A stretch of DNA of 62,734 nucleotides, counting the filler, from Collodictyon triciliatum (taxonomy: Eukaryota), in the NCBI GenBank assembly GCA_043381765.1. It is 5 parts of 4 records of this genome, joined end to end, with 100 filler letters (N's around TTAATTAATTAA, not from the genome) between each part and the next. Parts side by side here need not be neighbours in the genome. Positions count along the whole stretch, not along the records: positions 1 to 14,312 come from JBHJMP010001853.1; 4 more parts are not named here. One strand, written 5' to 3'. Under the pieces are notes generated by a model. The model did no database searches. It worked only from the letters and a program-made list of their open reading frames with translations, and was not told the origin of the DNA. The translations under genes and the position numbers were made by a program. Shown here one piece after another: positions 1 to 17,588 of the stretch. The number at the start of each line of letters is the position of its first letter. Within the stretch, counting starts at the first letter, position 1.

Positions 1-79
1 GTTTACAAAAAAGAAGTAGTGGATGAACAGAAAACCGAACTGTAAAAACGTAAAAGAGTACAAAGTCACTTTTATTCCC
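1..79 (+). repeat. Direct repeat copy 1 (may extend left of the window)
   Basis: Matches 4702-4781 with 3 substitutions and a 1-nt indel in a T run. Confidence 0.95.
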
Positions 80-117
80 ACCATGCCCCCTATATTTTAT
101 TTCTCTATTAAATTATT

Positions 118-1224
118 ATGGTTATTAAAAAGACTGATCAAGAATATTTAGAACAAGCCTATCAGTCTACCGCACATACAAACTCAGTCGCCGGTCTTTG
201 GGCACAAGTCAAACAATACGGAATTACTAAAGCCAGTGTCTCTAATTTCCTCAAACAACAGCCAGACTATCAAACACTCCAAGCCAAGAAAAAAGAAAAA
301 AGAACTGCAACTATGGTAAGATATAAACCCGGTTACATTCAGATGGACACCATTGATATCACACCGATGAAAAGTAAAGTAGCTAAACACTTGCTGACTC
401 TTGTTGATATCTTTACCAGAAAGCTCTGGGCGTTTCCACTCAAAAATAAAAGTGCCGATCTTGTCAGTAAAAGACTTACTGAATTTCTTAATCAGTACAA
501 AGTAACAAACACCGTCCAGTCTGATAACGGAGTTGAGTTCAAAAAAGATGTCCCAGAACTTTTAAAAGAACGAGGCGTCAATGAAGTCAAGTCTGCTCCA
601 GCCAATCCGACGACGAACGCATTTGTTGAAAGAGCAAATGGTGTTTTGAAAAGAGCACTTTATGGATATCTCCAGAAAACTGGCAAAGACCCTATTCCAA
701 ATCTCCAAGACTTTGTGGATAGTATTAATTTAGTTAAAAATGAGACGACGCAAGTAGTCCCCGAGGTTGCCATACTGCCAGAGAATAAAGAAAAGATAAT
801 TGAAAATATTACAAAGTACGCAAATAAAAAAGGATCTGCATCCACAAAATTATTAAATGTGGGGGACAAAGTCAGAGTGTTGTTAGAAAAAACAAATATC
901 ACCGCGGCGAAAAAAAACGAACTAAAGCAGAGTAAAGGCTTCCTGCCAAGATACTCAAATGAAATATATACAATAGAAAGTAGAAACACACCCAATGATA
1001 AATTCTCTGCACCAACATATTATTTGAAAGATTATAAAACTGCAAACACAAAAAAGCAACGATTCCTTCAAAGTGACTTATTAAAAATAGATGATACAAT
1101 CACTAAAGGACAGACACATAAACCAGCCGTTGATTTGTTAAAGCATACCAAGGTAGATAGACGCAGCAAAGAAAATAAACAAGACCCAACGTATAGACAA
1201 ACAAGAAGTAGATCAAAAAAATAA
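118..1224 (+). CDS. Polinton/Mavirus-type retroviral-like (rve, DDE) integrase
   Basis: QMDTID, LTLVDIFTRKLWAFPLKNKS, VQSDNGVEF and NAFVERANGVLK give the DDE core; C-terminal VGDKVRV...KGFLPRYSNEIYTI is typical of Polinton integrases; uninterrupted ORF. Confidence 0.93.
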   Translation: MVIKKTDQEYLEQAYQSTAHTNSVAGLWAQVKQYGITKASVSNFLKQQPDYQTLQAKKKEKRTATMVRYKPGYIQMDTIDITPMKSKVAKHLLTLVDIFTRKLWAFPLKNKSADLVSKRLTEFLNQYKVTNTVQSDNGVEFKKDVPELLKERGVNEVKSAPANPTTNAFVERANGVLKRALYGYLQKTGKDPIPNLQDFVDSINLVKNETTQVVPEVAILPENKEKIIENITKYANKKGSASTKLLNVGDKVRVLLEKTNITAAKKNELKQSKGFLPRYSNEIYTIESRNTPNDKFSAPTYYLKDYKTANTKKQRFLQSDLLKIDDTITKGQTHKPAVDLLKHTKVDRRSKENKQDPTYRQTRSRSKK

Positions 1225-1226
1225 TT

Positions 1227-1841
1227 TTATTTCTTAGGGTTAGGGGGTCGTCCTCGTCCACGCTTGATTACAACTTTTGGCTCTGGCTCCGGCTCCGGCT
1301 GCAAAGCCGGTTCTGGCTCTGGCTCTTCTACTTTTCTCTTCTTGTATTTTCTTTTTGATTCAGAAACTATCTTTTCAATTGTCTGCTTCTCTAGCTTCTT
1401 GGCCTCTGCAATATCATCCTTTAGCTTTTCGCTTTCTGCTTCTTGCTTGATCTTTCTTGTTCGTTGCCTACCTTTTACTGCCTTGTCCATACCCTTGGCA
1501 AGAGTTTCTTTTAACGTCTGTTTCGACTTGGCAAAGAAATAAACATCCTCGGGGTTAACCGACCATTTCTTTTTTTTATCCAGCGTAGAAAATCCATAGA
1601 GATCCACTTTTATTTTTTTTATCTCCTTTAAAGTTTCATCCGGCAAATAACTGATATACCCCCCCTTTACTAATTTCGGTTCAGTTTCTTTTTTCTCCAA
1701 ACTATCATTTTGGTATTTTCTAGGTTTTGGAATATAGGTAACAAAGTCATTCACTTTTATATCCTTGGGTTCAATGAACTCCCAATTGTCACTAAAGTCT
1801 TTTGGCAGTTTCGCTTTTATTTCCTCGGGAATCATTACCAT
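1227..1841 (-). CDS. Hypothetical viral protein with N-terminal globular domain, charged coil, EP repeats and C-terminal AT-hook
   Basis: First ATG at 1841 (the ORF track begins at a TTG); ends in KRGRGRPP AT-hook; converges on the integrase with a 2-nt spacer. Confidence 0.75.
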   Translation of the reverse strand: MVMIPEEIKAKLPKDFSDNWEFIEPKDIKVNDFVTYIPKPRKYQNDSLEKKETEPKLVKGGYISYLPDETLKEIKKIKVDLYGFSTLDKKKKWSVNPEDVYFFAKSKQTLKETLAKGMDKAVKGRQRTRKIKQEAESEKLKDDIAEAKKLEKQTIEKIVSESKRKYKKRKVEEPEPEPALQPEPEPEPKVVIKRGRGRPPNPKK

Positions 1842-1871
1842 TATCAATTATTTTATTTTTAGAATTAAACG

Positions 1872-1881
1872 CAACTTAAAG
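1872..1881 (+). promoter_or_regulatory. CAACTTAAAG motif upstream of ORF 1920
   Basis: Identical 10-mer occurs in sense orientation upstream of the TVpol-helicase gene (4519-4528, minus). Confidence 0.4.
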
Positions 1882-1919
1882 TTATCTCACTAAGATAATT
1901 TACGAACAACTCTTTAAAT

Positions 1920-2138
1920 ATGGATTCTCAAACACTCGATGCGAACATAGCCGCTCTAAAATACTTTGGTGTCCCCGCTAAGGACGTCTTTGAAGCTCTC
2001 ATGCGTTCCGCTCGCCGCAAAGAAAGTTTACAAAAACATTATATCAAAAGAAAAACAGAAGAGAAAGAAAAATACAAATGGAGAAACCCCGAGGTCACTG
2101 TGTACATTGATAAACAAGGAAATAAGTCTTATAAATAA
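1920..2138 (+). CDS. Small basic hypothetical viral protein (72 aa)
   Basis: ATG ORF filling the space between neighbours; stop codon lies within a hairpin shared with the convergent TVpol gene. Confidence 0.65.
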   Translation: MDSQTLDANIAALKYFGVPAKDVFEALMRSARRKESLQKHYIKRKTEEKEKYKWRNPEVTVYIDKQGNKSYK

Positions 2139-2163
2139 ATTTGTGCAATTGCACTAATTTATT
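2134..2163. terminator. Palindromic hairpin at convergent 3' ends
   Basis: AATAAATTTGTGCAATTGCACTAATTTATT is a 30-nt palindrome with one mismatched pair and covers both stop codons. Confidence 0.65.
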
Positions 2164-4489
2164 CAATTCGTTGTCTCTTCTGCTGACTCTCGGCAAACTC
2201 GGGAATTGTTGCGCAGACTCCTGGGTTTCTAAGCTTACGGCGAATCTCCATGTAGTTCAAGACATATTTGCTGTGGTGGTTAGTCGTGACATTATATTCT
2301 TTTTTGAATTCGATCCATTCTTTGTTATGACCAAATTTGTTTTTGTCCATTAGCTCATACTTTGGAAAGTATTGGGTCATAAAGAATCTATACAGATCAT
2401 ATAGTTCTGTGTGATACAAATCAAACTTGACACTGTCAAACCAACGATAACGATTAGTATCAATTCCAACAATCTTATTATATTTGTTCATCTCACTTTC
2501 GTTCCAATCCATAAACACATATTCAATAAAACTCTGAATCACTGATTTGTGTGACTCAGCCATTTCTTCCAGCATCTCACACTTTGGCATTTTGTTGAAA
2601 TCAAAACTTGGATTATACATGTTGAGTAATAACAACAAAAACTTTCTATTAAAATCTTCATCATCAGTTTCTGCTGCAAGTTGTTCCTCTTCTGATTTTT
2701 GTAGACGTGATTCAGAACATTCAATCACACAGAATCGGCGCATGTTGTCACGTTCAAATTTGACACCGATGCTTTTGTTTGTGCATAAAAATGTATTGAC
2801 ATAACATTTCTTTTTTTTGGGATCATTGCACATTTTTCTAAGATTGGTATATTGTCGGTCCACTAGGTCCTTAATTTCTCCCTGGAGTCCCTTGACGTTT
2901 TGAAATTCTGCCTCCTCGCAAATAAGTGCAAGGCATCCCTCAAGCATTGCATTGCGATTTCCAAACACCTCTTCAAAATTGCACGGGGCGCGCCAATACT
3001 GTGTTCCTAGAAGTTTGTCTCCAAAATGCAATTTCAAGAAACTTGATTTGCCTGTGCCTCCTTTCTTATTCGTCATAATAATCATCTTCTTAATTTTCTT
3101 GTGCGGGTTATAGATGATGTGCGCCAAGTACTGCAAAAAGTAAATATATGCATCTTGCTTTCCGTTGCACAACAGATTGAATATTTGATGGTAATGCTTT
3201 GATTTTATAAAATCCTCTGCCATTGTTGTGTGATAATGCGTAACATGGATATGTTTAAGATATTCATGATAATTTTCAAAGTCAGTAACTTTTTCGGCAA
3301 ACATTTTTTCAAAGGCAAACCCCGTGAACAAATTATAGTAGGAATAATTCCTAGTATCCATGTAAGGCACAAAATCAAATTTTTCATATTTTCTTTTGCC
3401 GTGCTTGCACAAAAGATTTGTGAATTTAGTGGCATTGGTTAAATTAAATTCTTCAAAATAACATTCTTTGCTAACATGCTCAAATTCTTGTTTATCTACA
3501 CCAATGGTTCTATAAAACTTGTCTCCAACTCTAAAATGAGTTTTTTCAAATTCTTCAATGCCCAGACTCTTATAGAGTACCTCCTGTTTGTCAATCTTTT
3601 CAAAGTCAAACGGGCTCTCCATTGATTTTTCTTTTATGACAACCTGATAACCGGTTTCTTGAAAAATAATTTCCTGACAATAATCTAATATTTCTTGGGG
3701 AAATTCTTTTTCGTTTTCAATTTTACGGACGGCACCCCCGTCGTACATGCCCAGGTCCAGCTGTCTATTTTTTTGTCTGAGTGCATTCTCAAATACAATT
3801 AGACATTCTCTTTCAACACTTTGGAAATAGTAAGACATTGCTCGTCCATACTTGTTATCGTCTTTTTCAAGCATTGGCTTTTTCCCAACTTTTAATTTAT
3901 GCCAATGTGGGACATTGACCCAAACATGTGCCGTGATAATATCGACTTCGTTTTTTAATTTTTTAAAGAATTGGTCTGTGTATGCAATAGGTGGTATTCC
4001 TCCATACAATAAAGTGCAGACATAACTTTTAAAAGTTTCTCGATCAATGTTTAACTTTTCCATGTATTCTTTAAAAATATTATCACGGTTAAAACAATAC
4101 TCTTGTAATGCCTCAACAACAATCCCGTTTTTATTAGCATACTGTAATATGAACGAGGGGTGAGCGTTCACAAAATCCAGGTCGTGGTAATACTTGGATA
4201 GCATTGCGTTACGAACGTCTCGCCAAGTATTTGCCAAACAATCAGTTGGACATACCCTTCCTACACCCCATACCCCCTTATGATTTTGTAATGCACTATA
4301 TTCTTTACCCATAGAATGAATACTAGTATAAGTATACAAATATACTTTAGGGTCAAGAGTGCATTTTCGTGACATTCTAATAAGCTTTTGCTTTATATCT
4401 TTCGGAACAATAGCATCTGAACACTTACACAGAAAGTCAGCGATTTCTTTGTCAAAAATGTAGGTATAGCTCTGGGATATCTGGCTCAT
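2159..4489 (-). CDS. TVpol (PolA-related primase/polymerase) fused to SF3/D5-like helicase
   Basis: Motif A YYHDLDFVNAHP, motif B RETFKSYVCTLLYGG, SYYFQSVE, motif C GMYDG; helicase Walker A GGTGKS, Walker B LICEE, motif C FLCTN, MRRFCVI. Confidence 0.88.
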   Translation of the reverse strand: MSQISQSYTYIFDKEIADFLCKCSDAIVPKDIKQKLIRMSRKCTLDPKVYLYTYTSIHSMGKEYSALQNHKGVWGVGRVCPTDCLANTWRDVRNAMLSKYYHDLDFVNAHPSFILQYANKNGIVVEALQEYCFNRDNIFKEYMEKLNIDRETFKSYVCTLLYGGIPPIAYTDQFFKKLKNEVDIITAHVWVNVPHWHKLKVGKKPMLEKDDNKYGRAMSYYFQSVERECLIVFENALRQKNRQLDLGMYDGGAVRKIENEKEFPQEILDYCQEIIFQETGYQVVIKEKSMESPFDFEKIDKQEVLYKSLGIEEFEKTHFRVGDKFYRTIGVDKQEFEHVSKECYFEEFNLTNATKFTNLLCKHGKRKYEKFDFVPYMDTRNYSYYNLFTGFAFEKMFAEKVTDFENYHEYLKHIHVTHYHTTMAEDFIKSKHYHQIFNLLCNGKQDAYIYFLQYLAHIIYNPHKKIKKMIIMTNKKGGTGKSSFLKLHFGDKLLGTQYWRAPCNFEEVFGNRNAMLEGCLALICEEAEFQNVKGLQGEIKDLVDRQYTNLRKMCNDPKKKKCYVNTFLCTNKSIGVKFERDNMRRFCVIECSESRLQKSEEEQLAAETDDEDFNRKFLLLLLNMYNPSFDFNKMPKCEMLEEMAESHKSVIQSFIEYVFMDWNESEMNKYNKIVGIDTNRYRWFDSVKFDLYHTELYDLYRFFMTQYFPKYELMDKNKFGHNKEWIEFKKEYNVTTNHHSKYVLNYMEIRRKLRNPGVCATIPEFAESQQKRQRIE

Positions 4490-4518
4490 CTTGTTATTGT
4501 AATATCGTATTGATATCT

Positions 4519-4528
4519 CTTTAAGTTG
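4519..4528 (-). promoter_or_regulatory. CAACTTAAAG motif upstream of TVpol-helicase
   Basis: Same 10-mer as 1872-1881, 29 nt before the ATG. Confidence 0.4.
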
Positions 4529-4572
4529 GAAATTTAATAATCTGGGGATATATATTTTTTGTCAATTTATGG

Positions 4573-4690
4573 AATGCCCCCAACTTATACCCCCGTAGTA
4601 TCATTTATATTATTCTTTATCTTATTATATCTTTATATAACAATCTTTATATAAAAATATATAAAGGGGTATTGGGGGCATTGGGGTATT
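4573..4690. promoter_or_regulatory. Origin-like structure: C/G-run inverted repeat around an AT-rich core with an internal hairpin
   Basis: AATGCCCCCAA(CTTA)TACCCC at 4573-4593 versus GGGGTATTGGGGGCATT at 4666-4682; CTTTATATA-AAAA-TATATAAAG hairpin at 4645-4666; ATCTTTATATAA occurs twice. Confidence 0.5.
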
Positions 4691-4701
4691 ACTTTTTAAG
4701 A

Positions 4702-4781
4702 GTTTACAAAAAAGACGTGGTGGATGAACAGAAAACGGAACTGTAAAAACGTAAAAGAGTACAAAGTCACTTTTTATTCCC
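4702..4781 (+). repeat. Direct repeat copy 2
   Basis: Near-identical to 1-79. Confidence 0.95.
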
Positions 4782-4783
4782 CC

Positions 4784-4984
4784 CTATACCCCTCCACCCC
4801 CTTCATCAAAAGTTACACGAAATGGTTCGTCAGCAATAATTTGTAAAATAAAATCATTTTTTATAAAATCTTTTCTGTTTTTATTTGTTTTCTTTTTGGC
4901 TTTTTCTAAAGAATATATAAACAGCTGAAGTTCCTCCCAATTAACGAATTCGTGTGTAATATCATTTATAATTAGTTTGAACAT
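4784..4984 (-). CDS. Small hypothetical viral protein (66 aa)
   Basis: ATG ORF directly downstream of the ATPase and preceded by the conserved 17-nt motif. Confidence 0.6.
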   Translation of the reverse strand: MFKLIINDITHEFVNWEELQLFIYSLEKAKKKTNKNRKDFIKNDFILQIIADEPFRVTFDEGGGGV

Positions 4985-5009
4985 ACAATTCTAAACAAAT
5001 TATTTTTTG

Positions 5010-5744
5010 TCAATAGACTATTTCCGAGTTAAAATTCTTATAGACTTTGGGTTTTCTGGGTTGCAACAGATCGATGAACATAAAACAATAGTTTTCGTTC
5101 GTGCAATATTCTAAAAGTTCGTCAAACTTACTTTGCGATAAATTCGTTAGTTCGTTTAGTGCCTCTCGTTCTCGCTGGTTGCTGGTGTAAAAAGAAATTA
5201 AGTGAGTTGCGTTTTGTCTGAGTTTTGGATTCATCAATCTGATAGCCTGACTCACTATTATGATACTGAGATTATAATGTCGGTGTTTAAGAAAGTTCTT
5301 TAACATATTTTTAGTCGGTCTTTCGAAAACTGTGCTCAAGTCGTCAAGCACCAGGAGGTACTGGTCTTTCTTCCAATCGTCGGGTTTTGTTATATCCTCG
5401 AGTATGTTATCAAATATTTCATCAGTAAAATTATCAAAGCTTCTTTTTTTTGAAAAGCGAACACCCTCATAGCTGACATCGGAAATTTTACCATCCACCA
5501 TATTAGAAGAACAAAAATAACACTTTTCATAATACTTATAATATAATTCTTTTTGACGAAGCAGATTAGCGATTAAAATAGATTTCCCTGAGCCCGTCTT
5601 TGCAGAAATTAACATCAAGTACGGTCTACTCTCGGCCGGGTCAGGAAGCGCCTCCAACAGTATTTTTCTTTTACTTTTTTTTATGGCAGTCAAGGGTTGG
5701 ACCTTGAAATTATTGACTATCTTTTCTTCCATACAGTTATTCAT
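5010..5744 (-). CDS. A32-like (FtsK/HerA) DNA-packaging ATPase; true start possibly 5732
   Basis: Walker A ISAKTGSGKS, Walker B YLLVLDDL, KHRHYNLSIIIVSQ and PKLRQNATH motifs typical of Polinton/virophage/NCLDV packaging ATPases. Confidence 0.93.
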   Translation of the reverse strand: MNNCMEEKIVNNFKVQPLTAIKKSKRKILLEALPDPAESRPYLMLISAKTGSGKSILIANLLRQKELYYKYYEKCYFCSSNMVDGKISDVSYEGVRFSKKRSFDNFTDEIFDNILEDITKPDDWKKDQYLLVLDDLSTVFERPTKNMLKNFLKHRHYNLSIIIVSQAIRLMNPKLRQNATHLISFYTSNQREREALNELTNLSQSKFDELLEYCTNENYCFMFIDLLQPRKPKVYKNFNSEIVY

Positions 5745-5753
5745 AAAATAAAA

Positions 5754-6107
5754 TCAACGGAACAATACATTGGGGTCAAACTCGTATTCTCTTGTTTGTT
5801 CTTTGTCTACAGTTTCCTGTTTGGCTTTTTTATTCATTCGTTTGTTCATTTTATAAGCCTCTTCTTGTGTCAAGTATTGCACTATCTTATCGACTTTTGA
5901 ATTGATTGCGCTGTAATCGTGTGAAGGCTGCTTCGCTTTCTCGTATGTTTTTATTGTTTGAGCAATCTCTTTATTCTTTTTCTTTGCCTCTGTGGCTTTG
6001 ACTTGGATTTTTGCGAGATGAGCCTTTTGCTTTTCAGAAGCAACTCGTTTTGTTTTTCTTTTGTTTTTTTCTATGGTTTCCATATCGTTATCTGAATCAG
6101 AGTTCAT
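5754..6107 (-). CDS. Basic coiled-coil hypothetical viral protein (117 aa)
   Basis: ATG ORF co-directional with the ATPase; KRVASEKQKAHLAK basic helix; preceded by the 17-nt motif. Confidence 0.7.
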   Translation of the reverse strand: MNSDSDNDMETIEKNKRKTKRVASEKQKAHLAKIQVKATEAKKKNKEIAQTIKTYEKAKQPSHDYSAINSKVDKIVQYLTQEEAYKMNKRMNKKAKQETVDKEQTREYEFDPNVLFR

Positions 6108-6141
6108 AACCTTTCCAAGAAAATAATTTCTGAGTTAGATT
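6108..6141. promoter_or_regulatory. Bidirectional promoter made of two back-to-back 17-nt motifs
   Basis: The 34-nt intergenic region is exactly ATTTTCTTGGAAAGGTT (minus) plus AATTTCTGAGTTAGATT (plus), each abutting an ATG. Confidence 0.6.
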
Positions 6142-6906
6142 ATGGATAGAGCATATTACATTCACGTGGATTCAGCCAACAGATCAACCGGAAGTATATC
6201 AGACTTTAACTTTGCCACGACGCAGAACCGGTATGTTGCAAGCTCAGGTAAAGTTGCACTTGAAAGTATTCAAATCCCTTATGCCGTGCACAATGTTACT
6301 AGTGCCAATAATACATTAGTCTTTATTTGTAGTGTTAACAACAGCCCCGTTTCATACAATGTGTCACTTGAAACTGGATTACAAACCATCAATGAAATAG
6401 TTACTGACATCAGAACAAAGATAAACGCGGCAACCGCAGGCCAGGGAGCCGCAGCAGAAGTTACTGTTTCATTTTTAAGTGGCAAGCAAAAGATAGCAAT
6501 CAAAGCAGCAGGTCCAAATGTTTCATATGAACTGTTTGTGAATTCTAGTACATGTAGAGAGCTAATAGGACTAACAGCAAATCTTACGTTCAACACTAGT
6601 TTCGTTGAGCTGCAGAATATGGTCAATGTCCGTCCGTTTGATTATGTGTATCTAGTCAGCCCGAATATTCAGAGTTCAAGTTTTGCATCAAACATAGGGG
6701 GCAATGGCATCGTCGCAAAGATTCCGCTGAGTGTTGGTTCACGGTACTCGAATTATTATGAGGTGAATGACAATATCCTAGAGAATCTGATGGACTGCTC
6801 GTATATTCCGTTCAGCTGGAATTTCCGGCTGGTTGATAGACTGGGCAATACAATCAACCAACTTCAGGACTACAGCTTCACGCTGCGGATTATTCCAGAC
6901 TTTTAA
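6142..6906 (+). CDS. Probable minor capsid protein (penton, single jelly-roll)
   Basis: IHVDSANR..G...DF, ALESIQIPY..HNV...NNTLVF, DYVYLVS, IVAKIP and FRLVDRLGN...YSFTLRI follow the PLV/NCLDV penton pattern; beta-rich, 254 aa, next to ATPase and fibre. Confidence 0.72.
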   Translation: MDRAYYIHVDSANRSTGSISDFNFATTQNRYVASSGKVALESIQIPYAVHNVTSANNTLVFICSVNNSPVSYNVSLETGLQTINEIVTDIRTKINAATAGQGAAAEVTVSFLSGKQKIAIKAAGPNVSYELFVNSSTCRELIGLTANLTFNTSFVELQNMVNVRPFDYVYLVSPNIQSSSFASNIGGNGIVAKIPLSVGSRYSNYYEVNDNILENLMDCSYIPFSWNFRLVDRLGNTINQLQDYSFTLRIIPDF

Positions 6907-6921
6907 TTTCTTGCTTAATGT
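6905..6921 (+). promoter_or_regulatory. 17-nt motif before fibre gene
   Basis: AATTTCTTGCTTAATGT-ATG; 15/17 identical to 14099-14115. Confidence 0.6.
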
Positions 6922-9309
6922 ATGGGTTTTTTCATAACAGAAGAAAAGGAACTACCGGAATTTTCCAGTCAAGACGCAAACAAAGTATTAAAAGTCGATC
7001 CGAGCGGGGTTTATCTACAGTGGCTACAGGAGACAACGACACCGGCTGAGCTTCCAAGTCAAACGGGGAATGCTGGACGTTTGCTGACAACAAATGGCTC
7101 AACTCCGTCGTGGACTAATGGTCCTATAGGATTGGGTACAACTGGGGCTGCTACTCCGATGCTTTGGTTTGGAAGCAATAACAACGGCTTTGCGGAAGGA
7201 TGGAGTGCCGGTGGCGGGGCAACGGGAGTAAGCGAGATTACAAATGGCGCAGTATGTTGTACATTTCAAAATGGGGCTATTAGACTGCCTGGTGGTAATC
7301 CAATAAGAAGCAATGGCAACGCGGCATCTCGGTTTCAGTGTACCAGTGATGTACCAAATATGCAAAATTCTGTGACTACCGGATCTGTTGGAACCGATCG
7401 TATTGTTAATGTGAGTTCAGCCAATTGGGCATCAACTTCATTAGACTTGGTAGCCAGCAATTTAAATGATACACCAGGCTCACTTAATGCTAGCCAGATG
7501 GGTATTGAGATAAAACAAAATCAAATCGTGTTTAATGGAGCTGGGATAACGGCATCAGGCACTACTTTGCCAGCTCGTGTCACACGAATGACTATTGATA
7601 ACACAGAAATAAGTACGAGTTTACCATTGGCTGTAGGCAACTATATGTCTGCGTCAAGTATTATTATAGCCACGACTGGCTTTGTGATGAATCAACCGGG
7701 AACAGAAGCCGCTCAAGCTTACACATTTCGTAATTTTGACACTAGTGATTCCAATCGAAATAATAGTAATAGACAAGGAATATATAGTCCTGCAATTGAA
7801 GCAATAGCTATATCAACAAACTCTGTAAGCAATATATCAGGAAGTACCGCTGGAAGACCCAATGCAGTAGAGCGCTTTAGGGTCGATGACAATTATGTGA
7901 CTGTGACGAATTCATTAAATCTTTCACGAGTAGGGTCAGCAGCTGAACCTAACCTTTTGTTTGGAGACAATACAACAATCCCAGCTACAAGTCGAACTGG
8001 TATCTGGGGCTCGGATGACAATATATTTTTTAGCACGGGAGGAGTTCAGAGATTCAGTATTGGCAATGCAAATGCTGCGATCTCAGGAAATTTAATTATG
8101 GCTACTCCAGCGATGGGTGTCACAGGAGCAAACGGCGGCATTGGTGTCGTGGCAGGTATAGGTGCAACCGCCGGATTGTATTCAACAACAAGTACAAATT
8201 CAGGCATTCGATTTCAAGACACTAATGCCAATGTACGTATTTTAACTAATGGAATGAATGTAATAGATTGCACGCAGGTGTCTGGTGCAGGTATAGTAAG
8301 TATGGAAGAAGCAATTACAATGAAAAAAGCTGTACGTTTTCCTTTTCAGTCTCGAAATCATACTAATATTTCTATAGGTACAACAAGTCCTATGATGATA
8401 CGAGCGTTGATATCTGACAATGTACCAAATACTTTTGATTTACCTTCATTAGGATTGAAATTAACTGGCCAAACCCATATTATTATTCCTTATAAAGATG
8501 CAGCCAGTACAGGCACGTTAGCTATGTGGACTGGTGGCGGAACGGGACACGCAATTCACGTTATGCATAATTCAACAAAAACTGTTGTCACAGGTAGCAG
8601 CACATATCCATTAATAGAGGGTGGGGTATACACTTGTGTGTGGCATTGGTTATCTTCAACTGCAGGCCTACTTCAAGGCATCTGGTATGCATGGATTGAT
8701 GGGCTGGCAGCGACATTAACTGTGCCCGACCCGTTTGTAATTGGTACAAATTTAGATTTTGTTACAGGAGGAAATGCAGCTGCTAGAATACAAGGGATAA
8801 ACTCAGGAGCAAACTCTGAAGTAGGTATGGTTATTAATGGGAGCATGAGAACTAAATTTACAGTAAATGATACCGAAGTTCAAAACTCGCTACGATTGTT
8901 TAAGGCGCGGATTACTGATTGGATAATTCACGACAGCGGCACGCACAAAGTGAGTCGAAATTCTCCTAGTAAAATCATATTAACAAAACAGGGTTCAGGA
9001 AGCTCAAATGCAGTAATTGTTTTTCCGGCAAGTACCGATGCCCCGGATGGACTAGAAATTCAAGTCATGGTTTGGATGTTGTCGGGTAGAAGTGGCTCAG
9101 GGGTTCAGATTGTGCGGTTTGATTCAGCCAGTCCAGCAAATAACGCCTTTGTGCTTGGTTCCAGTGGCACAGGTATCACACTTGGAGGAACAAGTTACAC
9201 CGTAACAGAAGGAACCAATTTTACAGCTACCAATTTCCGTACCACTATAGGACGCTGGATGGTTGATTCAACTCGATTTAACTGTACTCCTGCTTTATCA
9301 TCCGCGTAA
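6922..9309 (+). CDS. Phage tail-fibre-like virion fibre/spike protein (795 aa)
   Basis: G/S/T/N-rich beta protein; LPSQTGNAGRLLTTNGSTPSW and GSAAEPNLLF...TGIW...IFFSTGGVQRFSI resemble phage tail-fibre repeats; directly follows the penton. Confidence 0.7.
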   Translation: MGFFITEEKELPEFSSQDANKVLKVDPSGVYLQWLQETTTPAELPSQTGNAGRLLTTNGSTPSWTNGPIGLGTTGAATPMLWFGSNNNGFAEGWSAGGGATGVSEITNGAVCCTFQNGAIRLPGGNPIRSNGNAASRFQCTSDVPNMQNSVTTGSVGTDRIVNVSSANWASTSLDLVASNLNDTPGSLNASQMGIEIKQNQIVFNGAGITASGTTLPARVTRMTIDNTEISTSLPLAVGNYMSASSIIIATTGFVMNQPGTEAAQAYTFRNFDTSDSNRNNSNRQGIYSPAIEAIAISTNSVSNISGSTAGRPNAVERFRVDDNYVTVTNSLNLSRVGSAAEPNLLFGDNTTIPATSRTGIWGSDDNIFFSTGGVQRFSIGNANAAISGNLIMATPAMGVTGANGGIGVVAGIGATAGLYSTTSTNSGIRFQDTNANVRILTNGMNVIDCTQVSGAGIVSMEEAITMKKAVRFPFQSRNHTNISIGTTSPMMIRALISDNVPNTFDLPSLGLKLTGQTHIIIPYKDAASTGTLAMWTGGGTGHAIHVMHNSTKTVVTGSSTYPLIEGGVYTCVWHWLSSTAGLLQGIWYAWIDGLAATLTVPDPFVIGTNLDFVTGGNAAARIQGINSGANSEVGMVINGSMRTKFTVNDTEVQNSLRLFKARITDWIIHDSGTHKVSRNSPSKIILTKQGSGSSNAVIVFPASTDAPDGLEIQVMVWMLSGRSGSGVQIVRFDSASPANNAFVLGSSGTGITLGGTSYTVTEGTNFTATNFRTTIGRWMVDSTRFNCTPALSSA

Positions 9310-9339
9310 ACAATTTTTATTAATAGTAAGAATTGTTTA
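9307..9339. terminator. Hairpin at convergent 3' ends
   Basis: TAAACAATTTTTATT-AAT-AGTAAGAATTGTTTA: 15-bp stem (2 G:U on the plus strand) running from one stop codon to the other. Confidence 0.7.
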
Positions 9340-12300
9340 GTAGATTGCCTGCGAAAGATTCTTGATAGGTGTGCCAAAGACACGCTCTGTGACAGGCCCG
9401 TAAGATTTGCGGCCAAATGCACCGGAGCTGACAAAGAACTGGGCGTCTCTGGCCGAGCCGAATGCGCGCTTCTGGCCCCCGCCGTGGACGACGTAATTGA
9501 GCCCCTCTCGTCGGATGGTGTAATTTGATTGGCCCGGAATAATGATGGTACCGAGGTCAGAGTTGACGACCCTGCCCAGGTTTTGCTGGGGGAGAAAAGC
9601 GACGTTTCTCAGTTTCTGGTCAGTCGTGTCTCCGTATTTCGGCTTGTACTTGAGAGGCCATGACCCTTCTTTACGGTATATTTTTAATGCGCTTTGTAGG
9701 CCTGGAATGTTGCCTTCAAAAAATAATTCTAGTATGTCCATAAGCGCACTAGTGTCAGGAGTTAAATCGACGTATTCAATATTAAATTCTCTCATGGCTG
9801 CTTCAAAAGTTTGCTTATCTACTATACCATAATCATTAGCTCTTGCTGGATTACCCTGTTCGATATACCTCGATACTTTTCTAGCAAAGCGTGATTGATT
9901 GCCGTATTCACGGTTGTCCGACACTTGAGGACGCATTGGGTTAAATATTGGCTGTTGACTACCGCGTCCATTGCCGCCAGGAGGGCCGCCACCAGGAGGG
10001 CCGCCTGCTCCAGGACCAAACATTGGAACTGCCCCTATAATAGGACTAGCAGTAGCTGCTTGCATTGATTGTCTTCTATTTGCTGCCATATTATTACCAC
10101 CGAAAATATTTCCTCGCACTGCATCACCTGCCGCCTGAAAAATGCCAGCGCCAGCGCCAGCTGCAGCTTGTAAAAAGCCAGCACCAGCATTAAAAACAGC
10201 CCCAGCCATTGCTCGTGCTGCAGCCAAATTTCCAGGAACAACTGGAGACAAAGGTGGCAGACCAGGGGGTGTTGGTTGACGTCGACGCACAGCGGGACTT
10301 TGAAACGGTACCACAGCTGCGGGGCGAGGAGGGCTAGTAGCTAATTGTTGTATTCTAGGGTTTGCTTGCAAGTTTTGAGGTGCATTCGGAGGCAATGCTG
10401 CAAAATCATCAACAAATTGCCAAGGGCCAGGCACCATAAAAGGACTAGGAGGGGGTCCAGGGGTAGCTTGTCTCACAGCAATTTGTCGTTGTGCACTTTG
10501 GGGAGTATCCTCGCGAGGAGCTCTTCCTACTGGTGTCCCCAGCTCATCTGTGGGAACTGCAGGAAACGCAGCGTTATAATAAAAAGTAGCTGTATCAGCA
10601 AGTTGTTCTCCTCGGGCTTTTAAATCGGCTGCAAATCTTCGTAGATCTTCTATTGTTTGAGCTTGTTCAATAACAAGCGGATTTTCAAGATTCAATAATG
10701 CATTTAAATCATTAACCTGTTCTTTAAGATCCTCTATTTCGACATCTTTGGTGTCAGGTGCGTCTTGCAACAAAATTAAATTTTGTACTTGAGTTTCTAA
10801 TTCCCGAATTCTATTCAGTTGTATTTCTGCATTTAATGCTTGTCTCTTAGCTTTATAACTATCCTGAACTCTTCTTAAATTATCTCTTCGCCTGTTTAAT
10901 TCTTCTGTGTTAAAACTAGAACTATGATTAGGTCTTTTTGGTGTTCTTGGTGTCTTTGGTGTCTTTGTTACTGAAGATGCAACTGAAATGTTTGTTGTAT
11001 CAAGTCCGACTCTATAGTTGCCTGGTATAATCTTGTTGAGAGCTGCACGTTGTTCCTCATGTCGGGCACGTTCATTTTGCATTTGCACACCCATGTCCTG
11101 TAATCTCTTTTGATAAATTTCTTTGTCTTGCATCAAGCCAGTTGCCAGTTGAGACGCAGTGTTAACAGTGTCTTGAAGTTCTTGTATATATTGGTTTTGA
11201 TCACTCATTGCATCATTCAATGTATCGATTTGTTCATATGCGTTATCTAAGTTTTTTTGTAAAAGCTCTATGTGTTCTGCTAATTTTTTAATTAATGCAT
11301 CTGCTTCTATTTCTATATTTGTAGGTGTTATATCTTTATCTAGAACCAAATCTTTAGATTTTTCTTTAGTTTTACTATTTTCTATTTTATCTGTTTCATT
11401 TTGTTTTTTTATTTCATTCATTTTAGCACTCATATCAGCTAATTTTTGTGTTATGTTGGTAATACTGACACTCTTGCTAGTATCGGGAACAGCAGTCCTG
11501 TTTGGTGTTTCTTTTGGACTAAATAATTCTCTTGCAGATTGTTTAATTGGTGATGGACTCTTAAAATCAGTTTTACTCGTTGTACCAAATCCAGAACGCT
11601 GAGTAAATGTAGGCGTGCTTTGTGCTATAATTGACCCTGCACTCATATTTGATGCATCAGGATCAAAATCTATCGTAGATTCGTTGAGCATAGACTCTGT
11701 CTGTGCCTGTGTAAATGATCCTGATTGATTCAGCTGTTGTAGGCTTTGATTTAAAAAAGACTGTGCAGGATCTAATATCATACTCTGGGTTGTTTGGTCA
11801 GGGTTAAATGTAGTGTTTGGTGATGCCGCTCCCAGGACTTGAGGACTAAATAATATGTTAGATGAACTCCTTGCCCTAGCAGCATAATTGGATTGATTAA
11901 AATATTGTGAGCGCTCAAATGTAGTAAACAAATTCCGCATGGACTGTGATAAAGCCGCACGAGAAATATGCCCACTTGTTTGTATCATGCTAACAATTGA
12001 CCGTGCAAGTAAATTACTAAAATTCATATTATCAAATTGGTTTAACTTGGCATCCAGTGAATCGTTTGCAATTGCTTCTAAATCTTTTTCTTCACGTTCT
12101 ATTAATTCCTTATAACCTTCATTTAGTTCCACAACTGGGATTAGTGCTAAATCTTCTGCCCTAACAACCTCTGCTCTAGTTTTCATTACTGCTTGACAAT
12201 TTTGTTGAAAATCTCTTACGTTGCGAATGTATTCTTGTAGCTCTGTTGGCAATGACTGATAAAAATTAAAAACACCTTGGTCTGTTGGTTCAGTCGCGTT

Positions 12301-14082
12301 TCGCACCAAAAAATCTCTGATAAATACTTGTAGATCTCTGGCTAATTTATTACCAAATTCAATTAACTCTCCCTGGCTGAGAGCATTTGTAATTTGTCGA
12401 AATAGTTCTTCCTCGTTTATTACTGCTGCTGGTGTTGATAACGCAATTATTGCATCATTAACTTTTTCTTCCCCCTGCTTATCTTGGGCAATTGTTTCGT
12501 CTGTATTTTGTATGTATCTTCTGTGATATTCCTGCAAAATTTCTTTATTTAGTCTAAGTCTTTGCACTTCTTGTCCTTTTCTTAACTTTTCAGCCATTTC
12601 CTCTTCAGCCTGTTTTTTATTTTTAAGAGCTGCCTCTCTTTTGATTCGTTTTTCTTCTTCAATCTTTTTTAATTGTATCTCTCGTGCCGCGTTTCGTGCT
12701 AAAACTCTTTTTTCACGTTCATTTGCCTCTAGTGCTTGTTTATATTCTATTTCAAGTTCAGCAATAAACCTATAATACGCAACATTCCAACATATTAATT
12801 CCAAAATTTCTTCTTCATCATATTCTAATTCTTCGCCAGCAGCAAAGCTATAAAGATATAATCGCACGTCTTCGTCAAATTCATTGTCCATGTAATTCAT
12901 AAACTCAAATTCCTTTTCGTCACCAAAATCTTTTGGAACGTTTTCTTTATAACTAAACCCTCTGTGTTTATACCACTCTTTAAAGCAAAGATTCATACCT
13001 GTGTAAACTTTGGATGCTACTCTCTGACCACGCACATTTTTTTTCTGAAGGTATCCTATTGTCAAATACTCTTTTTTATTTCCAATTTCTGCTCTAACGT
13101 CATCTGATAATCTTTGCCACCTTTCCTTTCCTTTTTGACTTTCCATTGCCTCGTCAAATTGTTCAAAATACGCATTTAGCTGATCCATTGTTGTATCCAA
13201 TTGTCCCTTATCTTCTTCTTCCTGTACTGTCTCAGCATCCTCTACATCTTTCTCTGCTACAAGGTCTTCCAATTCTTGATCTATTAGTGCAGCTTCTTTT
13301 TTTAGTTCTTCATTAATTTGCGATTGTTTTATTCTATTTGCATTTTGCATATCTATTTTACTCATGCCATCTGGAGGGTCCATACTATGTAACACTATAT
13401 ATTCCAACACCACCGTACTCAGACTAGTATCATTTGGATTTTCCTCTAGTAAACGATTTAGCTCCTTTTCTCTATTCAAACCTTCTTTTTGATTATAAAT
13501 TCTACGTCTATCTGGATCAGGAGCTCTATACACCTCATCTTCTATAGCTCTTTCCATTTGTTCATTAGTCATACCAACTGGAGGGTCTGATTTTAATGCC
13601 AATATATATTTCCAACGTGGTATTTCTGGATTGTCTGCTTCTGCCTCATTTAATTGATTTCTATAAAATTCAAGTTCATCATCAGTGTATTTTTTAACTT
13701 CAGGATCATATGGAAATGTGATGTAATATGGTTCTAATAAATCAGCCCTTCCCTGATTTTTTTTAGGGTCCAAAGTATCTATTTCTCTTGGCAGTTTTGA
13801 TTTTACTATATTGTCATACAATTTCTCTAATTGTATAAAGTCATCCATGTCTAATTTTGTTTCTTCACGTCTAGCTCTATAATATAAAACATGAAAATCA
13901 TTTAATGCTTGATTAAAATTTTTACTTGGTTTTTGCAGATAATATAAAATATAATTAAATTTATACCCAATTAATGAATCATTATCAAATAAACTTTCAA
14001 TATTGTTTTCTTTAAAGTGTTGTGTATACCAAGGTATTTTATTTTTTTTCAACTGTTCTATGGTATAATATTTGGAGCTCAT
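9337..14082 (-). CDS. Large coiled-coil/low-complexity viral protein (~1581 aa)
   Basis: Uninterrupted ORF; first ATG (MSSKYY) at 14082, and the upstream extension in the ORF track overlaps the divergent gene; E/K/Q-rich heptads plus S/T/P- and A/G/P-rich tracts. Confidence 0.8.
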   Translation of the reverse strand: MSSKYYTIEQLKKNKIPWYTQHFKENNIESLFDNDSLIGYKFNYILYYLQKPSKNFNQALNDFHVLYYRARREETKLDMDDFIQLEKLYDNIVKSKLPREIDTLDPKKNQGRADLLEPYYITFPYDPEVKKYTDDELEFYRNQLNEAEADNPEIPRWKYILALKSDPPVGMTNEQMERAIEDEVYRAPDPDRRRIYNQKEGLNREKELNRLLEENPNDTSLSTVVLEYIVLHSMDPPDGMSKIDMQNANRIKQSQINEELKKEAALIDQELEDLVAEKDVEDAETVQEEEDKGQLDTTMDQLNAYFEQFDEAMESQKGKERWQRLSDDVRAEIGNKKEYLTIGYLQKKNVRGQRVASKVYTGMNLCFKEWYKHRGFSYKENVPKDFGDEKEFEFMNYMDNEFDEDVRLYLYSFAAGEELEYDEEEILELICWNVAYYRFIAELEIEYKQALEANEREKRVLARNAAREIQLKKIEEEKRIKREAALKNKKQAEEEMAEKLRKGQEVQRLRLNKEILQEYHRRYIQNTDETIAQDKQGEEKVNDAIIALSTPAAVINEEELFRQITNALSQGELIEFGNKLARDLQVFIRDFLVRNATEPTDQGVFNFYQSLPTELQEYIRNVRDFQQNCQAVMKTRAEVVRAEDLALIPVVELNEGYKELIEREEKDLEAIANDSLDAKLNQFDNMNFSNLLARSIVSMIQTSGHISRAALSQSMRNLFTTFERSQYFNQSNYAARARSSSNILFSPQVLGAASPNTTFNPDQTTQSMILDPAQSFLNQSLQQLNQSGSFTQAQTESMLNESTIDFDPDASNMSAGSIIAQSTPTFTQRSGFGTTSKTDFKSPSPIKQSARELFSPKETPNRTAVPDTSKSVSITNITQKLADMSAKMNEIKKQNETDKIENSKTKEKSKDLVLDKDITPTNIEIEADALIKKLAEHIELLQKNLDNAYEQIDTLNDAMSDQNQYIQELQDTVNTASQLATGLMQDKEIYQKRLQDMGVQMQNERARHEEQRAALNKIIPGNYRVGLDTTNISVASSVTKTPKTPRTPKRPNHSSSFNTEELNRRRDNLRRVQDSYKAKRQALNAEIQLNRIRELETQVQNLILLQDAPDTKDVEIEDLKEQVNDLNALLNLENPLVIEQAQTIEDLRRFAADLKARGEQLADTATFYYNAAFPAVPTDELGTPVGRAPREDTPQSAQRQIAVRQATPGPPPSPFMVPGPWQFVDDFAALPPNAPQNLQANPRIQQLATSPPRPAAVVPFQSPAVRRRQPTPPGLPPLSPVVPGNLAAARAMAGAVFNAGAGFLQAAAGAGAGIFQAAGDAVRGNIFGGNNMAANRRQSMQAATASPIIGAVPMFGPGAGGPPGGGPPGGNGRGSQQPIFNPMRPQVSDNREYGNQSRFARKVSRYIEQGNPARANDYGIVDKQTFEAAMREFNIEYVDLTPDTSALMDILELFFEGNIPGLQSALKIYRKEGSWPLKYKPKYGDTTDQKLRNVAFLPQQNLGRVVNSDLGTIIIPGQSNYTIRREGLNYVVHGGGQKRAFGSARDAQFFVSSGAFGRKSYGPVTERVFGTPIKNLSQAIY

Positions 14083-14098
14083 AATATAACTTATATAA

Positions 14099-14115
14099 AA
14101 TTTCTTGGCTAATGT
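14099..14115 (+). promoter_or_regulatory. 17-nt motif before ORF 14116
   Basis: AATTTCTTGGCTAATGT-ATG. Confidence 0.6.
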
Positions 14116-14312
14116 ATGATTGTTGATGTTAGAAAAGCAAGCAGAGGTGTTGGTCGCTTTCTTACCCGGCACACGGACAACGCACTAAACAAACTGCAAC
14201 GATTAGACAAAGCCTACTCGGATTTGAATCGGGCAAGCGGTGGGCTGGTCGAGTTGGGGCTGCAGGGAACAGGAATCAAACCTGCATTCCAGACAATTGC
14301 CAACCCGCTGGT
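14116..14312 (+). CDS. Hypothetical viral protein, truncated by gap
   Basis: ATG preceded by the conserved motif; open to the contig end; basic amphipathic N-terminus. Confidence 0.6.
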
Positions 14313-14412
14313 NNNNNNNNNNNNNNNNNNNNNNNNNNNNNNNNNNNNNNNNNNNNTTAATTAATTAANNNNNNNNNNNNNNNNNNNNNNNNNNNNNNNN
14401 NNNNNNNNNNNN
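14313..14412. other. Artificial 100-bp contig linker (N44-TTAATTAATTAA-N44)
   Basis: Same six-frame-stop linker recurs at 25330-25429, 39670-39769 and 54009-54108. Confidence 0.95.
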
Positions 14413-14414
14413 GG

Positions 14415-14711
14415 ACGAAGCTTGAACGAATTCCAGGATTTGAGCATTATACTCATTACCGTATTTCGACCCATGGCAAAATGTGTGAATCATATACCTG
14501 GAGTAATTTGAAACAAATTAAAAAACGTGCAACTGGTTACAAAGTTGTTACTCTTTATAGTCGGGGCAAAAGTAAAACTTACAACGTGCATGAATTGGTC
14601 GCGTTGGCGTTTGTTGACAACCCAGGCAATTACAAACAAGTTATACACTGCAATGGAATTAAAACAGATAACAACCGTGAAAACCTCCGTTGGGCACCTG
14701 CAACTGACTAG
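14415..14711 (+). CDS. NUMOD4-HNH endonuclease-like protein, 5' end in gap
   Basis: Frame open from the contig start: RIPGFEHY..YRISTHGK (NUMOD4), GYKVVTL, VHELVALAFVDNP, VIHCNGIKTDNNRENLRW (HNH_3). Confidence 0.82.
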   Translation, partial: TKLERIPGFEHYTHYRISTHGKMCESYTWSNLKQIKKRATGYKVVTLYSRGKSKTYNVHELVALAFVDNPGNYKQVIHCNGIKTDNNRENLRWAPATD

Positions 14712-14754
14712 AATAAACTAAAAATCCCATAAATCAATTGAGTATGAAATAAAC

Positions 14755-14796
14755 TGATATTTATTTATTCTAGGTATATAGAATAAATAAATATCA
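14755..14796. terminator. Perfect 18-bp stem hairpin downstream of the HNH gene
   Basis: TGATATTTATTTATTCTA-GGTATA-TAGAATAAATAAATATCA. Confidence 0.7.
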
Positions 14797-15437
14797 ATAA
14801 AATGCGTATTTCAAAGCCAAACTTAATCTGTTACCCTCATAATCAAAACGAGAGCTCATAAATTTATAATCATATGAAAATGACAGTACATTGGTTATCA
14901 ATGGGATACATATTAACTGTGGTGCAACACTCTTAAAAAAACAAAACACTTGTGTGAAATGATATTCTAGGAATCCACGCTTGATAAATCGAGTTATTAA
15001 TCGTACATGAATATATAACTGCCAAATAGCAACTACATCAAAATCAAGGATTTGCAGTAGAGCAGCCGAAAAAAAAACGCAAGCTCTATGGTCTCGGGGA
15101 AAAAATCAGCATTATCTGGAAATTATCTCATATTATGATTTCATTAAAATTCGCTCTAGCATATGATATTTTGGGGCTTTTTTATAGAATAAAAATTGAG
15201 TTTCTGGATTACAGCAGTGATGTCTATAACAGCAAGGCTATATGTATATATCTATTGAATTCAATGTGTATAAAATTATGCATAATTGAGTTTTGTATAA
15301 TTAAAACAAAATGCACGTGAAAGTATCCAGTTTTATTGCCATATTCCTTTTACCGTTTCACGGAACTGCTGGATACAAAAAAATCTGGGGGAATCTCTTT
15401 GTGCGCTTCGAATTTTCAGTTCAGTAAAACATCTTAA

Positions 15438-17219: not shown

Positions 17220-17446
17220 CTTCCAGGATATTTCTTTCTTTTCTTTTTTTAATTAGGTCTGCGTCCGGTTTGAGATGAATAGGGTAAATCTTCGGATTGG
17301 AATACATATTTTTGAGAAAATGCTATTAGTTGAATGCATTTACACACGTGAGAGAATGATATGGTTAATAATTATTGTTCTTGCTGAAATATTACCATCA
17401 ACTAGATGCTAGAAAAATAAAGTGGGTACATTTTAATGCCAACTAA

Positions 17447-17492
17447 CAATTACAATTACAATTACAATTACAATTACAATTACAATTACAAT

Positions 17493-17586
<94 letters not shown>
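17447..17586. repeat. (CAATTA)n-(AAT)n compound microsatellite
   Basis: Direct reading. Confidence 0.97.

Positions 17587-17588
<2 letters not shown>

Follow-up and report, generated by a model that had tools for sequence, protein, structure and literature searches.

The first contig (positions 1-14312) of a 62,734-nt stretch of the Collodictyon triciliatum assembly GCA_043381765.1, the whole of which is referred to here as the window, carries AT-rich palindromes at the ends of its genes, and its gene content suggests that it is part of the genome of a polinton-like virus (PLV). The palindromes exist as potential hairpins, exceed chance, sit at gene ends, and recur at the same gene ends in related loci from metagenomes. 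With a probability of roughly 0.55, they are read here as transcript 3'-end signals of the PLV transcription units. Under this reading, AT-rich palindromes would punctuate the 3' ends of transcription units, each folding when transcribed into a hairpin at which the mRNA is terminated or processed, while a single palindrome between convergent genes would serve both strands and also prevent antisense read-through, with the signals being read by machinery from outside the element. Action at the level of RNA, the marking of polyadenylation or termination, and the identity of the reader are all three things that we infer from the sequence.

The two hairpins of the preliminary description, and a third, lie in this first contig. 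Hairpin 1 is a 30-nt AT-rich palindrome, AATAAATTTGTGCAATTGCACTAATTTATT, at 2134..2163, with 14 of its 15 pairs being Watson-Crick. It holds the TAA stop codons of a 72-amino-acid (aa) open reading frame (ORF) on the plus strand (2136-2138) and of a primase-helicase gene on the minus strand (2159-2161). Hairpin 2 (9307..9339) folds into a 15-pair stem with a 3-nt loop and two G-U pairs on the plus-strand RNA, which in a strand-symmetric count corresponds to 12 Watson-Crick pairs and one mismatch; its outermost pairs are the TAA stops of a fibre-like gene (9307-9309, plus strand) and of a 1581-aa gene (9337-9339, minus strand). The preliminary description of this DNA, which had placed each of these two hairpins across both stop codons of a convergent gene pair, is borne out on this point. 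Hairpin 3 (4626..4661, minus strand) has 14 Watson-Crick pairs and one G-U pair on the minus-strand RNA (-12.4 kcal/mol, z -4.25, matched by 0 of 200 shuffles), and is situated in a 294-nt spacer downstream of the minus-strand block 6107-4784 (a 117-aa ORF, an ATPase gene and a 66-aa ORF) and upstream of the primase gene. All three hairpins close blocks of co-directional genes.

Each region was folded against 200 dinucleotide-preserving shuffles. The region of hairpin 1 (2125-2172) reached -9.7 kcal/mol on the plus strand (z -3.80) and -12.1 kcal/mol on the minus strand (z -4.41), and that of hairpin 2 (9298-9348) reached -13.7 kcal/mol (z -5.28) and -8.0 kcal/mol (z -3.62), respectively, with 0 of 200 shuffles as good in each of the four cases. 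The earlier proposal that these hairpins be compared with shuffled DNA therefore came out in their favour on either strand (z -3.6 to -5.3). As a raw sliding-window scan of minimum free energy was topped by G+C-rich coding stretches, palindromes were counted with shuffles instead, in a strand-symmetric manner that admitted Watson-Crick pairs, no more than one mismatch and loops of up to 10 nt. Only three palindromes of at least 12 pairs are present in the 14,312-nt contig, at 2134-2163, 4626-4661 and 9307-9339, against a mean of 0.17 and a maximum of 1 when the whole contig was shuffled 100 times with its dinucleotides preserved. Behind these three comes a palindrome of 10 pairs within the primase gene.

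A scan of metagenomes with the single protein P0008 returned nine loci, among them L002 (16.4 kb), L003 (14.8 kb) and L007 (12.9 kb), which are syntenic with the window contig, and L001, which overlaps the region of the fibre-like and large genes. The window contig together with L002, L003 and L007 makes up a family set of 58,415 nt, 8.7% of which is non-coding under the ORF calls of this analysis. Non-coding DNA holds 18 of the 22 palindromes of at least 10 pairs in this set (binomial P 4e-16) and all 12 of those with at least 12 pairs (binomial P 2e-13). At 16 of 39 gene 3' ends, a palindrome of at least 10 pairs is centred between -5 and +70 nt of the stop codon, compared with 2.5% of 1200 random windows. 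These ends are 16 of the 25 at which the spacer measures at least 20 nt or no neighbour is annotated, and none of the 14 with a spacer of less than 20 nt. Ten distinct hairpins within approximately 30 nt of a stop codon serve the 16 gene ends, and stop codons are favoured over start codons. The family set thus displays the enrichment of palindromes in intergenic DNA just downstream of stops by which the hairpin rule of giant viruses is recognised.

It could be argued that such hairpins are chance products of AT-rich spacers with TAA stops on both strands, given that the spacers are 75% A+T and that TAA and TTA at the two ends supply three free pairs. When each spacer was shuffled alone, with its 75% A+T kept, 1.99 +/- 1.31 non-coding palindromes were obtained (maximum 6), and 0 of 200 such shuffles (mean 2.0) reached the 18 observed. 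Added to this, 0 of 200 local shuffles match hairpin 1 or hairpin 2, 0 of 100 contig shuffles give three palindromes of at least 12 pairs, and hairpin 2 is conserved in four other loci. Chance is a very improbable explanation, and is already refuted as far as shuffling controls allow.

At most gene ends the hairpins differ in sequence between relatives. Those at the end of the primase gene vary by locus, with a GTGCAATTGCAC core in the window, GAGTA..TACTC in L003 and GGTG..CACC in L007, and those that close the ATPase block in the window, L002, L003 and, weakly, L007 differ in sequence and stand at the same orthologous gene ends. Since orthologous gene ends keep a hairpin and not its sequence, the pattern resembles the one described for the Mimivirus signal in the available part of the source (PMC4402537). 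Mismatches in hairpins 2 and 3 are of the G-U kind on the sense-strand RNA, which fits a role at the level of RNA.

Several observations, given in this and the next three paragraphs, weigh against the palindromes being 3'-end signals, or against a giant virus being their reader. No hairpin was found within 70 nt at 9 of the 25 gene ends with room for one. In three loci (window 1222-1229; L003 1304-1307; L007 519-522), the integrase gene converges with an ORF of 187-204 aa, the two being separated by 2 nt or overlapping by 4 nt, and no hairpin is present in any of the three, which makes this pair a consistent exception; in the window, where the stops (1222-1224 and 1227-1229) are 2 nt apart, folding gave z -1.41 and -0.73, with 20 and 43 of 200 shuffles as good. 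Three small-gap tandem junctions that were folded had no hairpin either (z -0.51, -0.71 and +0.22), showing that the hairpin rule has limits here. Of the 18 non-coding palindromes, eight are either at the start of a contig or separated by over 90 nt from the closest stop upstream of them, and three of the folded hairpins (L002 2640-2705, L002 6427-6510 and L007 4040-4097) are not individually significant (z -1.2 to -1.6).

Hairpin 2, moreover, is strongly conserved in sequence. It is found at the same place in L001, L002, L003 and L007, with both stops always forming the outermost pairs, and is kept in L002 even though the neighbouring L002 proteins are 30-47% identical over part of their length. 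Within it, 27 of 33 positions are invariant, compared with 9 of 60 flanking positions. Eleven of its 15 pairs are constant, three vary on one side only (U-A to U-G, with pairing kept in the plus-strand RNA), and none varies on both sides. Compensatory changes among related loci, which the preliminary description had named as a check on related copies, were looked for in hairpin 2 and none was found, with 234 of 500 shuffles reaching the observed percentage paired. This comparison speaks for a conserved sequence element, without proving an RNA structure, and the conservation would be as compatible with a site of protein binding or recombination as with an RNA hairpin.

The palindromes may therefore be considered as sites acting at the DNA level, bound by a dimeric protein (in packaging, at a replication origin or as a regulator) or marking a boundary of module exchange, in which case they would be found at gene ends because non-coding DNA is tolerated there. 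The sequence of hairpin 2, kept far beyond its flanks even in L002 and without compensatory changes, is in keeping with this, as are the modular divergence of the family and an approximately 85-nt direct repeat that brackets the integrase-to-primase module and adjoins hairpin 3. Most other hairpins, however, vary in sequence yet recur at orthologous gene ends, where a sequence-specific DNA site predicts otherwise. The palindromes are also near stops and not starts (10 hairpins for 16 gene ends), and their wobble-type mismatches keep pairing solely in the sense-strand RNA. A DNA-level role is considered improbable.

With regard to the reader of the signals, the early promoter of Mimiviridae, AAAATTGA, is not enriched in the window (13 occurrences vs. 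14.7 expected), and its one occurrence in the element is inside the primase ORF. The hexamer AATAAA overlaps the stop codon of 3 of 10 genes in the window (P 0.016), 7 of 11 in L002 (P 1e-6), 0 of 9 in L003 and 0 of 9 in L007, where the P values take all TAA triplets as background. The three window stops concerned (1227, 2138 and 2159) all belong to the replication/integration module, and AATAAA can be read on either strand in hairpin 1 and, in hairpin 2, on the minus strand. The AATAAA-embedded stop is a lineage-specific 3'-end feature, and possibly a canonical poly(A) signal.

These features would suit transcription in the host nucleus by RNA polymerase II, in which AAUAAA would direct cleavage and polyadenylation, the palindromes would act as bidirectional insulators, pause sites or fail-safe substrates of a host RNase III, and no giant virus would be needed. 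The AATAAA in hairpins 1 and 2, its enrichment at the stops of L002 and the window, and the absence of AAAATTGA from promoters all count for this explanation. Some polinton-like viruses, too, are believed to multiply in the absence of giant viruses. Against host expression, the close relatives L003 and L007 keep their hairpins with no AATAAA at their stops (0/18), and AATAAA is not kept inside hairpin 2 of either. Hairpins are, furthermore, no known general feature of eukaryotic poly(A) sites, the two being contrasted in the available part of one source (PMC4402537), and promoter-like motifs placed so close to the ATG, with only 9 nt in between, point to very short leaders like those of giant-virus and virophage genes. 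Expression by the host polymerase is regarded as unlikely to account for the hairpins.

The motifs in question fall into two classes. At 14 of 40 gene starts (four in the window, three in L002, three in L003 and four in L007), WWTTTCTK has its end exactly 9 nt upstream of the ATG; the motif occurs 110 times in all, counting both strands, and the genes that have it at this distance are all on the morphogenesis side. Two copies stand back to back at 6117..6132, ATTTTCTT on the minus strand (6117-6124) and AATTTCTG on the plus strand (6125-6132), each ending 9 nt before its own ATG. On the plus strand, AATTTCTT ends at the same distance before the ATG of the fibre-like gene (6905..6912) and before that of an ORF starting at 14116 (14099..14106). 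The second promoter-like class, CTTAAAR, is found 29-51 nt before the primase gene and neighbouring replication-side genes in the window, L002, L003 and L007. In the window it reads CTTAAAG both at 1875..1881 (plus strand), 38 nt before the ATG of the 72-aa ORF, and at 4519..4525 (minus strand), 29 nt before the ATG of the primase-helicase gene. Bacterial-type signals gave no comparable pattern: sigma-70 promoters are not enriched above expectation, a scan with the intrinsic terminator consensus found 12 sites vs. 11.2 expected, none of them at the three hairpins, and a search of positions 1-15400 against Rfam gave no match at E <=1.

As neither an RNA polymerase nor an RNase III nor a poly(A) polymerase appears to be encoded by the element, its signals would have to be read by another machinery; domains of RNase III and poly(A) polymerase were found in none of the 12 window ORFs (10 of them in the element), 11 L002 ORFs or 2 L003 ORFs. 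A co-infecting giant virus is considered somewhat more likely than the host nucleus to be the reader. That a giant-virus machinery does read the hairpins, as had been suggested previously, is nevertheless a tentative proposal whose chances appear to be below even. The hairpin-punctuated gene ends hint at dependence on a giant virus, without proving it.

A more elaborate, and rather doubtful, arrangement would have two regimes of expression. In one, morphogenesis genes would have a rigid TTTCTK-N9-ATG promoter and hairpins at their ends, hairpin 2 among them, as signals for a giant virus that supplies late transcription together with its RNase III/poly(A) apparatus; in the other, the replication/integration module, with CTTAAAR and AATAAA-embedded stops, could be expressed by the host. 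If this were true, the cis-signals could serve as an 'address label' allowing the giant-virus helper of this PLV lineage to be recognised by sequence alone, and the hairpin rule, so far one of amoebal virophages, would extend to polinton-like viruses. Whether a polinton-like virus replicates independently or parasitises a giant virus is undecided in most cases. Shared cis-signals, in the form of promoters and hairpin terminators, are the main sequence-based argument for dependence in the case of Sputnik, mavirus and PgVV. The hairpin gene ends and fixed-distance motifs seen here, in an uncharacterised PLV lineage that is present in this assembly and in several freshwater metagenomes, offer a concrete and testable handle on the matter.

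From its genes, it is concluded that contig 1-14312 is part of a PLV genome rather than of a virophage of the Sputnik/mavirus type. Of the features by which PLVs are defined, it encodes an A32 packaging ATPase, an rve integrase and a primase-helicase; a capsid candidate is seen in the syntenic L002, the window contig ending before it, and the penton candidate is a lead only. The distinction from Sputnik/mavirus-type virophages is drawn because no maturation protease was found. No cysteine maturation protease scored above the Pfam threshold in the 12 window ORFs or in 13 ORFs of relatives, although a divergent one could escape Pfam, and the sole protease match, to Peptidase_C15 (E 0.0028), was sub-threshold. 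Of the virophage reading put forward in the preliminary description, what is supported is that the element belongs to the realm of virophages and polinton-like viruses, and not that it is of a Sputnik or mavirus type. Integration into a host genome, and the part in host antiviral defence that the preliminary description had raised, find no support in this analysis. No host DNA was seen beside the element, as the contig starts inside viral sequence and ends within an ORF at a linker, and L002, L003 and L007 have no terminal repeats.

The contig is densely packed with intron-free ORFs. Its replication and integration genes begin with an rve-family integrase of 368 aa (118..1224, plus strand; PF00665, E 2e-10), followed by a 204-aa ORF of unknown function (1227..1841, minus strand) that is 40-42% identical to its orthologues in L003 and L007, and by the 72-aa ORF (1920..2138, plus strand), which has no relative among the metagenomic loci compared. 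The primase-helicase (2159..4489, minus strand; 776 aa) has a D5-like DUF5906 domain (PF19263, E 1.3e-10) and matches the PHROG family phrog_1156, DNA primase (E 1.5e-17). Next on the minus strand are the 66-aa ORF (4784..4984), which is without a family match and uncertain as a real gene; the 244-aa packaging ATPase of A32 (FtsK-HerA) type (5010..5744; PF04665, E 7e-9, above the curated cut-off), 90-91% identical to those of L003 and L007; and the 117-aa ORF (5754..6107), which is kept in the family and has ATTTTCTT ending 9 nt before its ATG.

On the plus strand, a 254-aa protein (6142..6906) is a penton-like (minor capsid) candidate, a lead that is based on feature scores of 0.95-0.96 to viral clusters; the Sputnik V18-19 family is annotated on 17% of the members of one matched cluster and DUF5901 on 13% of those of another. 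The fibre-like protein of 795 aa (6922..9309, plus strand) has weak fold matches and a recurrent N-terminal motif. It was considered as a major capsid protein and rejected, as its model is all-beta and of low confidence (pLDDT 52.6), the viral folds closest to it are those of tail-fibre, collagen and Mtd-N proteins (TM <=0.15, weak), its N-terminal motif is found again in multi-repeat proteins, and a separate double-jelly-roll capsid gene is present in the relative L002. Residues 40-70, a motif of approximately 30 residues within the first 70 (6922-7130), recur up to 15 times in more than 100 otherwise unrelated long proteins, and the motif is probably a fibre or collar repeat shared with phage-like tail-fibre proteins. 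The 1581-aa ORF (9337..14082, minus strand), of unknown function and without a family match, is rich in coiled-coil and low-complexity sequence. The contig is cut in the start of a conserved ORF of approximately 119 aa (14116..14312, plus strand), whose L002 orthologue precedes a double-jelly-roll capsid gene. This L002 gene, a 533-aa ORF, has an Atlas model that matches double-jelly-roll capsid clusters (TM 0.65-0.71; feature score 0.97-0.98), and a sequence search of the PDB with it gave 0 matches. Given the gene order in L002, in which the capsid gene comes after the orthologue of the 14116 ORF, the window contig would end just before its own capsid gene.

The element family is rare in databases. 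Only four relatives of the primase were present among 5.8 billion proteins, and 17 of the 795-aa protein at E <=1e-30. Among IMG/VR viral contigs, no relative was found with the fibre-like protein, the primase, protein P0008 or an ATPase alignment as the query. In IMG/VR, the single locus with the strict hairpin pattern was on a contig of a tailed phage, which carries terminase genes and is unrelated. With the pattern relaxed to TAAACAATT-N8-22-AATTGTTTA, no fewer than 120 loci were obtained there, which were judged to be chance matches because the inner sequence of the family was in none of 120. Pieces with 0-9 differences per 278-531 nt, among the records shown, are present in two of four public DNA runs compared, a freshwater metagenome (X1) and an unlabelled run (X4), a finding that fits a free and a cell-associated virus equally; among the runs listed for the sequence, none was of RNA.

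Divergence within the family is very unequal among modules. The ATPase and penton candidate of the window are 90-95% identical to those of L003 and L007, and 59% (ATPase) and 36% (penton) identical to those of L002, while the primase is 22-26% and the integrase 31-40% identical between the window and its relatives (22-25% and about 40%, respectively, for L003 and L007). This would indicate module exchange. Positions 1-85 and 4702-4786 form the near-exact direct repeat of approximately 85 nt (about four mismatches) that brackets the integrase-to-primase module, and the window begins exactly at the repeat. A contig in run X1 joins the repeat regions otherwise (joints 108->4610 and 4737->37), and the repeat may mark either a swappable replication module or an assembly break. 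Close by, G-tract repeats (GGGGTATT GGGGGCATT GGGGTATT) adjoin hairpin 3 at 4666-4692, and G- or C-tracts are present also in long spacers of L002 and L003.

The window as a whole consists of five contigs (1-14312, 14413-25329, 25430-39669, 39770-54008 and 54109-62734), joined by linkers of the form N44-TTAATTAATTAA-N44 at 14313-14412, 25330-25429, 39670-39769 and 54009-54108, which contain stops in six frames. As the window is a chain of separate contigs, adjacency across the linkers carries no meaning. The runs of N at 40456-40865 and 51664-52379 are ordinary gaps. Contigs other than the first resemble ordinary eukaryotic DNA, with microsatellites and fragmented ORFs, and a comparison with the metagenomic loci revealed nothing in common except one short tblastx match to L006, in an apparent host gene. 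In the second contig, an ORF of 593 aa (15438-17219) contains a domain of glycosyltransferase family 92 (E 1.5e-23); long (ATT)n/(AAT)n and AG-rich microsatellites come after it at 17436-18243, and the region has the appearance of host DNA.

Two further hairpins were noted in these contigs. The start of the second contig (14415-14798) includes a fragment of an HNH_3 homing-endonuclease ORF (E 2e-6; PHROG HNH, E 2e-19), and approximately 45 nt after its stop there is an AT-rich hairpin of 18-19 bp (14753-14798; -19.4 kcal/mol, z -8.4), which has AATAAATAAA on each strand and is similar in style to the PLV hairpins; no link in sequence with the PLV loci was detected. It is resembled by a perfect 18-bp AT-rich hairpin in the fourth contig (45450-45491; TGATAT...ATATCA), overlapping the stop codon of an ORF of 101 aa (45175-45480) for which Pfam gave no match.

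The proposed working of the PLV palindromes can be likened to the hairpin rule of Mimiviridae, Marseilleviridae, Pithovirus, Sputnik-type virophages and transpovirons. According to the available portions of the sources cited here, hairpin termination is a hallmark of Mimiviridae (PMC6163669), hairpin 3'-end signals are found also in Bodo saltans virus (PMC5871332) and at 16 of 21 Sputnik genes (PMC6723459), and virophages and transpovirons bear terminator hairpins (PMC7031253). The Mimivirus signal is defined by structure, its nucleotide sequence not being conserved, and the hairpin is processed (nicked) by a viral RNase III before a viral poly(A) polymerase adds the tail (PMC4402537). As in the hairpin rule of Mimiviridae, Sputnik and transpovirons, the AT-rich palindromes of the present family are concentrated just after stops, one palindrome is common to convergent genes, and most palindromes are not conserved in sequence between relatives; as with Sputnik and transpovirons, the element is small and lacks transcription and 3'-processing enzymes of its own.

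There are also differences. Hairpin 2 of the PLV is strongly conserved in sequence, unlike the Mimivirus signal, and the element has no AAAATTGA promoter, unlike Mimiviridae, and no protease, unlike virophages. Coverage in the family is partial, at 16 of 39 gene ends, compared with the 16 of 21 genes in Sputnik (PMC6723459). The analogy with the hairpin rule that was drawn initially therefore stands for the enrichment at gene 3' ends and for the architecture, but not for AAAATTGA, which is unenriched, for hairpin 2, which is conserved in sequence, or for the AATAAA at stops. With the canonical promoter absent and one hairpin conserved in sequence, membership in the giant-virus hairpin-rule system cannot be claimed.

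In the marseillevirus Noumeavirus, 66.8% of palindromes are in the 10% of DNA that is intergenic (PMC5413956), and the same statistic in the PLV family is 18 of 22 palindromes in 8.7% non-coding DNA. Noumeavirus, however, is a giant virus that encodes an RNase III itself, whereas the PLV is an element of approximately 15-17 kb without an RNase III gene. A hairpin between convergent genes that can be used on both strands is reminiscent also of the intrinsic bidirectional terminators of bacteria and phages, although the PLV stems are AT-rich and not followed by a U-run, and the genes are of eukaryotic-virus type.

There is a likeness in size class and gene content to the algal PLV virophages PgVV/Gezel-14T (bioRxiv 10.1101/2022.07.28.501842) and the PLVs of Tetraselmis (bioRxiv 10.1101/2025.10.09.676808), with which the present family has in common an A32 ATPase, a candidate penton, a double-jelly-roll capsid candidate (in L002) and a tail-fibre-like protein; it carries, in addition to these, an rve integrase and a D5-like primase-helicase. 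Dependence of the algal PLV virophages on giant viruses was inferred from shared promoter motifs (bioRxiv 10.1101/2022.07.28.501842; 10.1101/2025.10.09.676808), and PgVV has the AAAATTGA early motif of its helper, which the present family does not (bioRxiv 10.1101/2022.07.28.501842). The word 'hairpin' is absent from the available text of both preprints, and no description of 3'-end hairpins in polinton-like viruses was found in the accessible part of the literature searched, most subscription journals being outside its scope. Since giant viruses and virophages are well known to use signals of this type, the hairpins described here extend a known principle, rather than introduce a new one, to a new lineage of polinton-like viruses.

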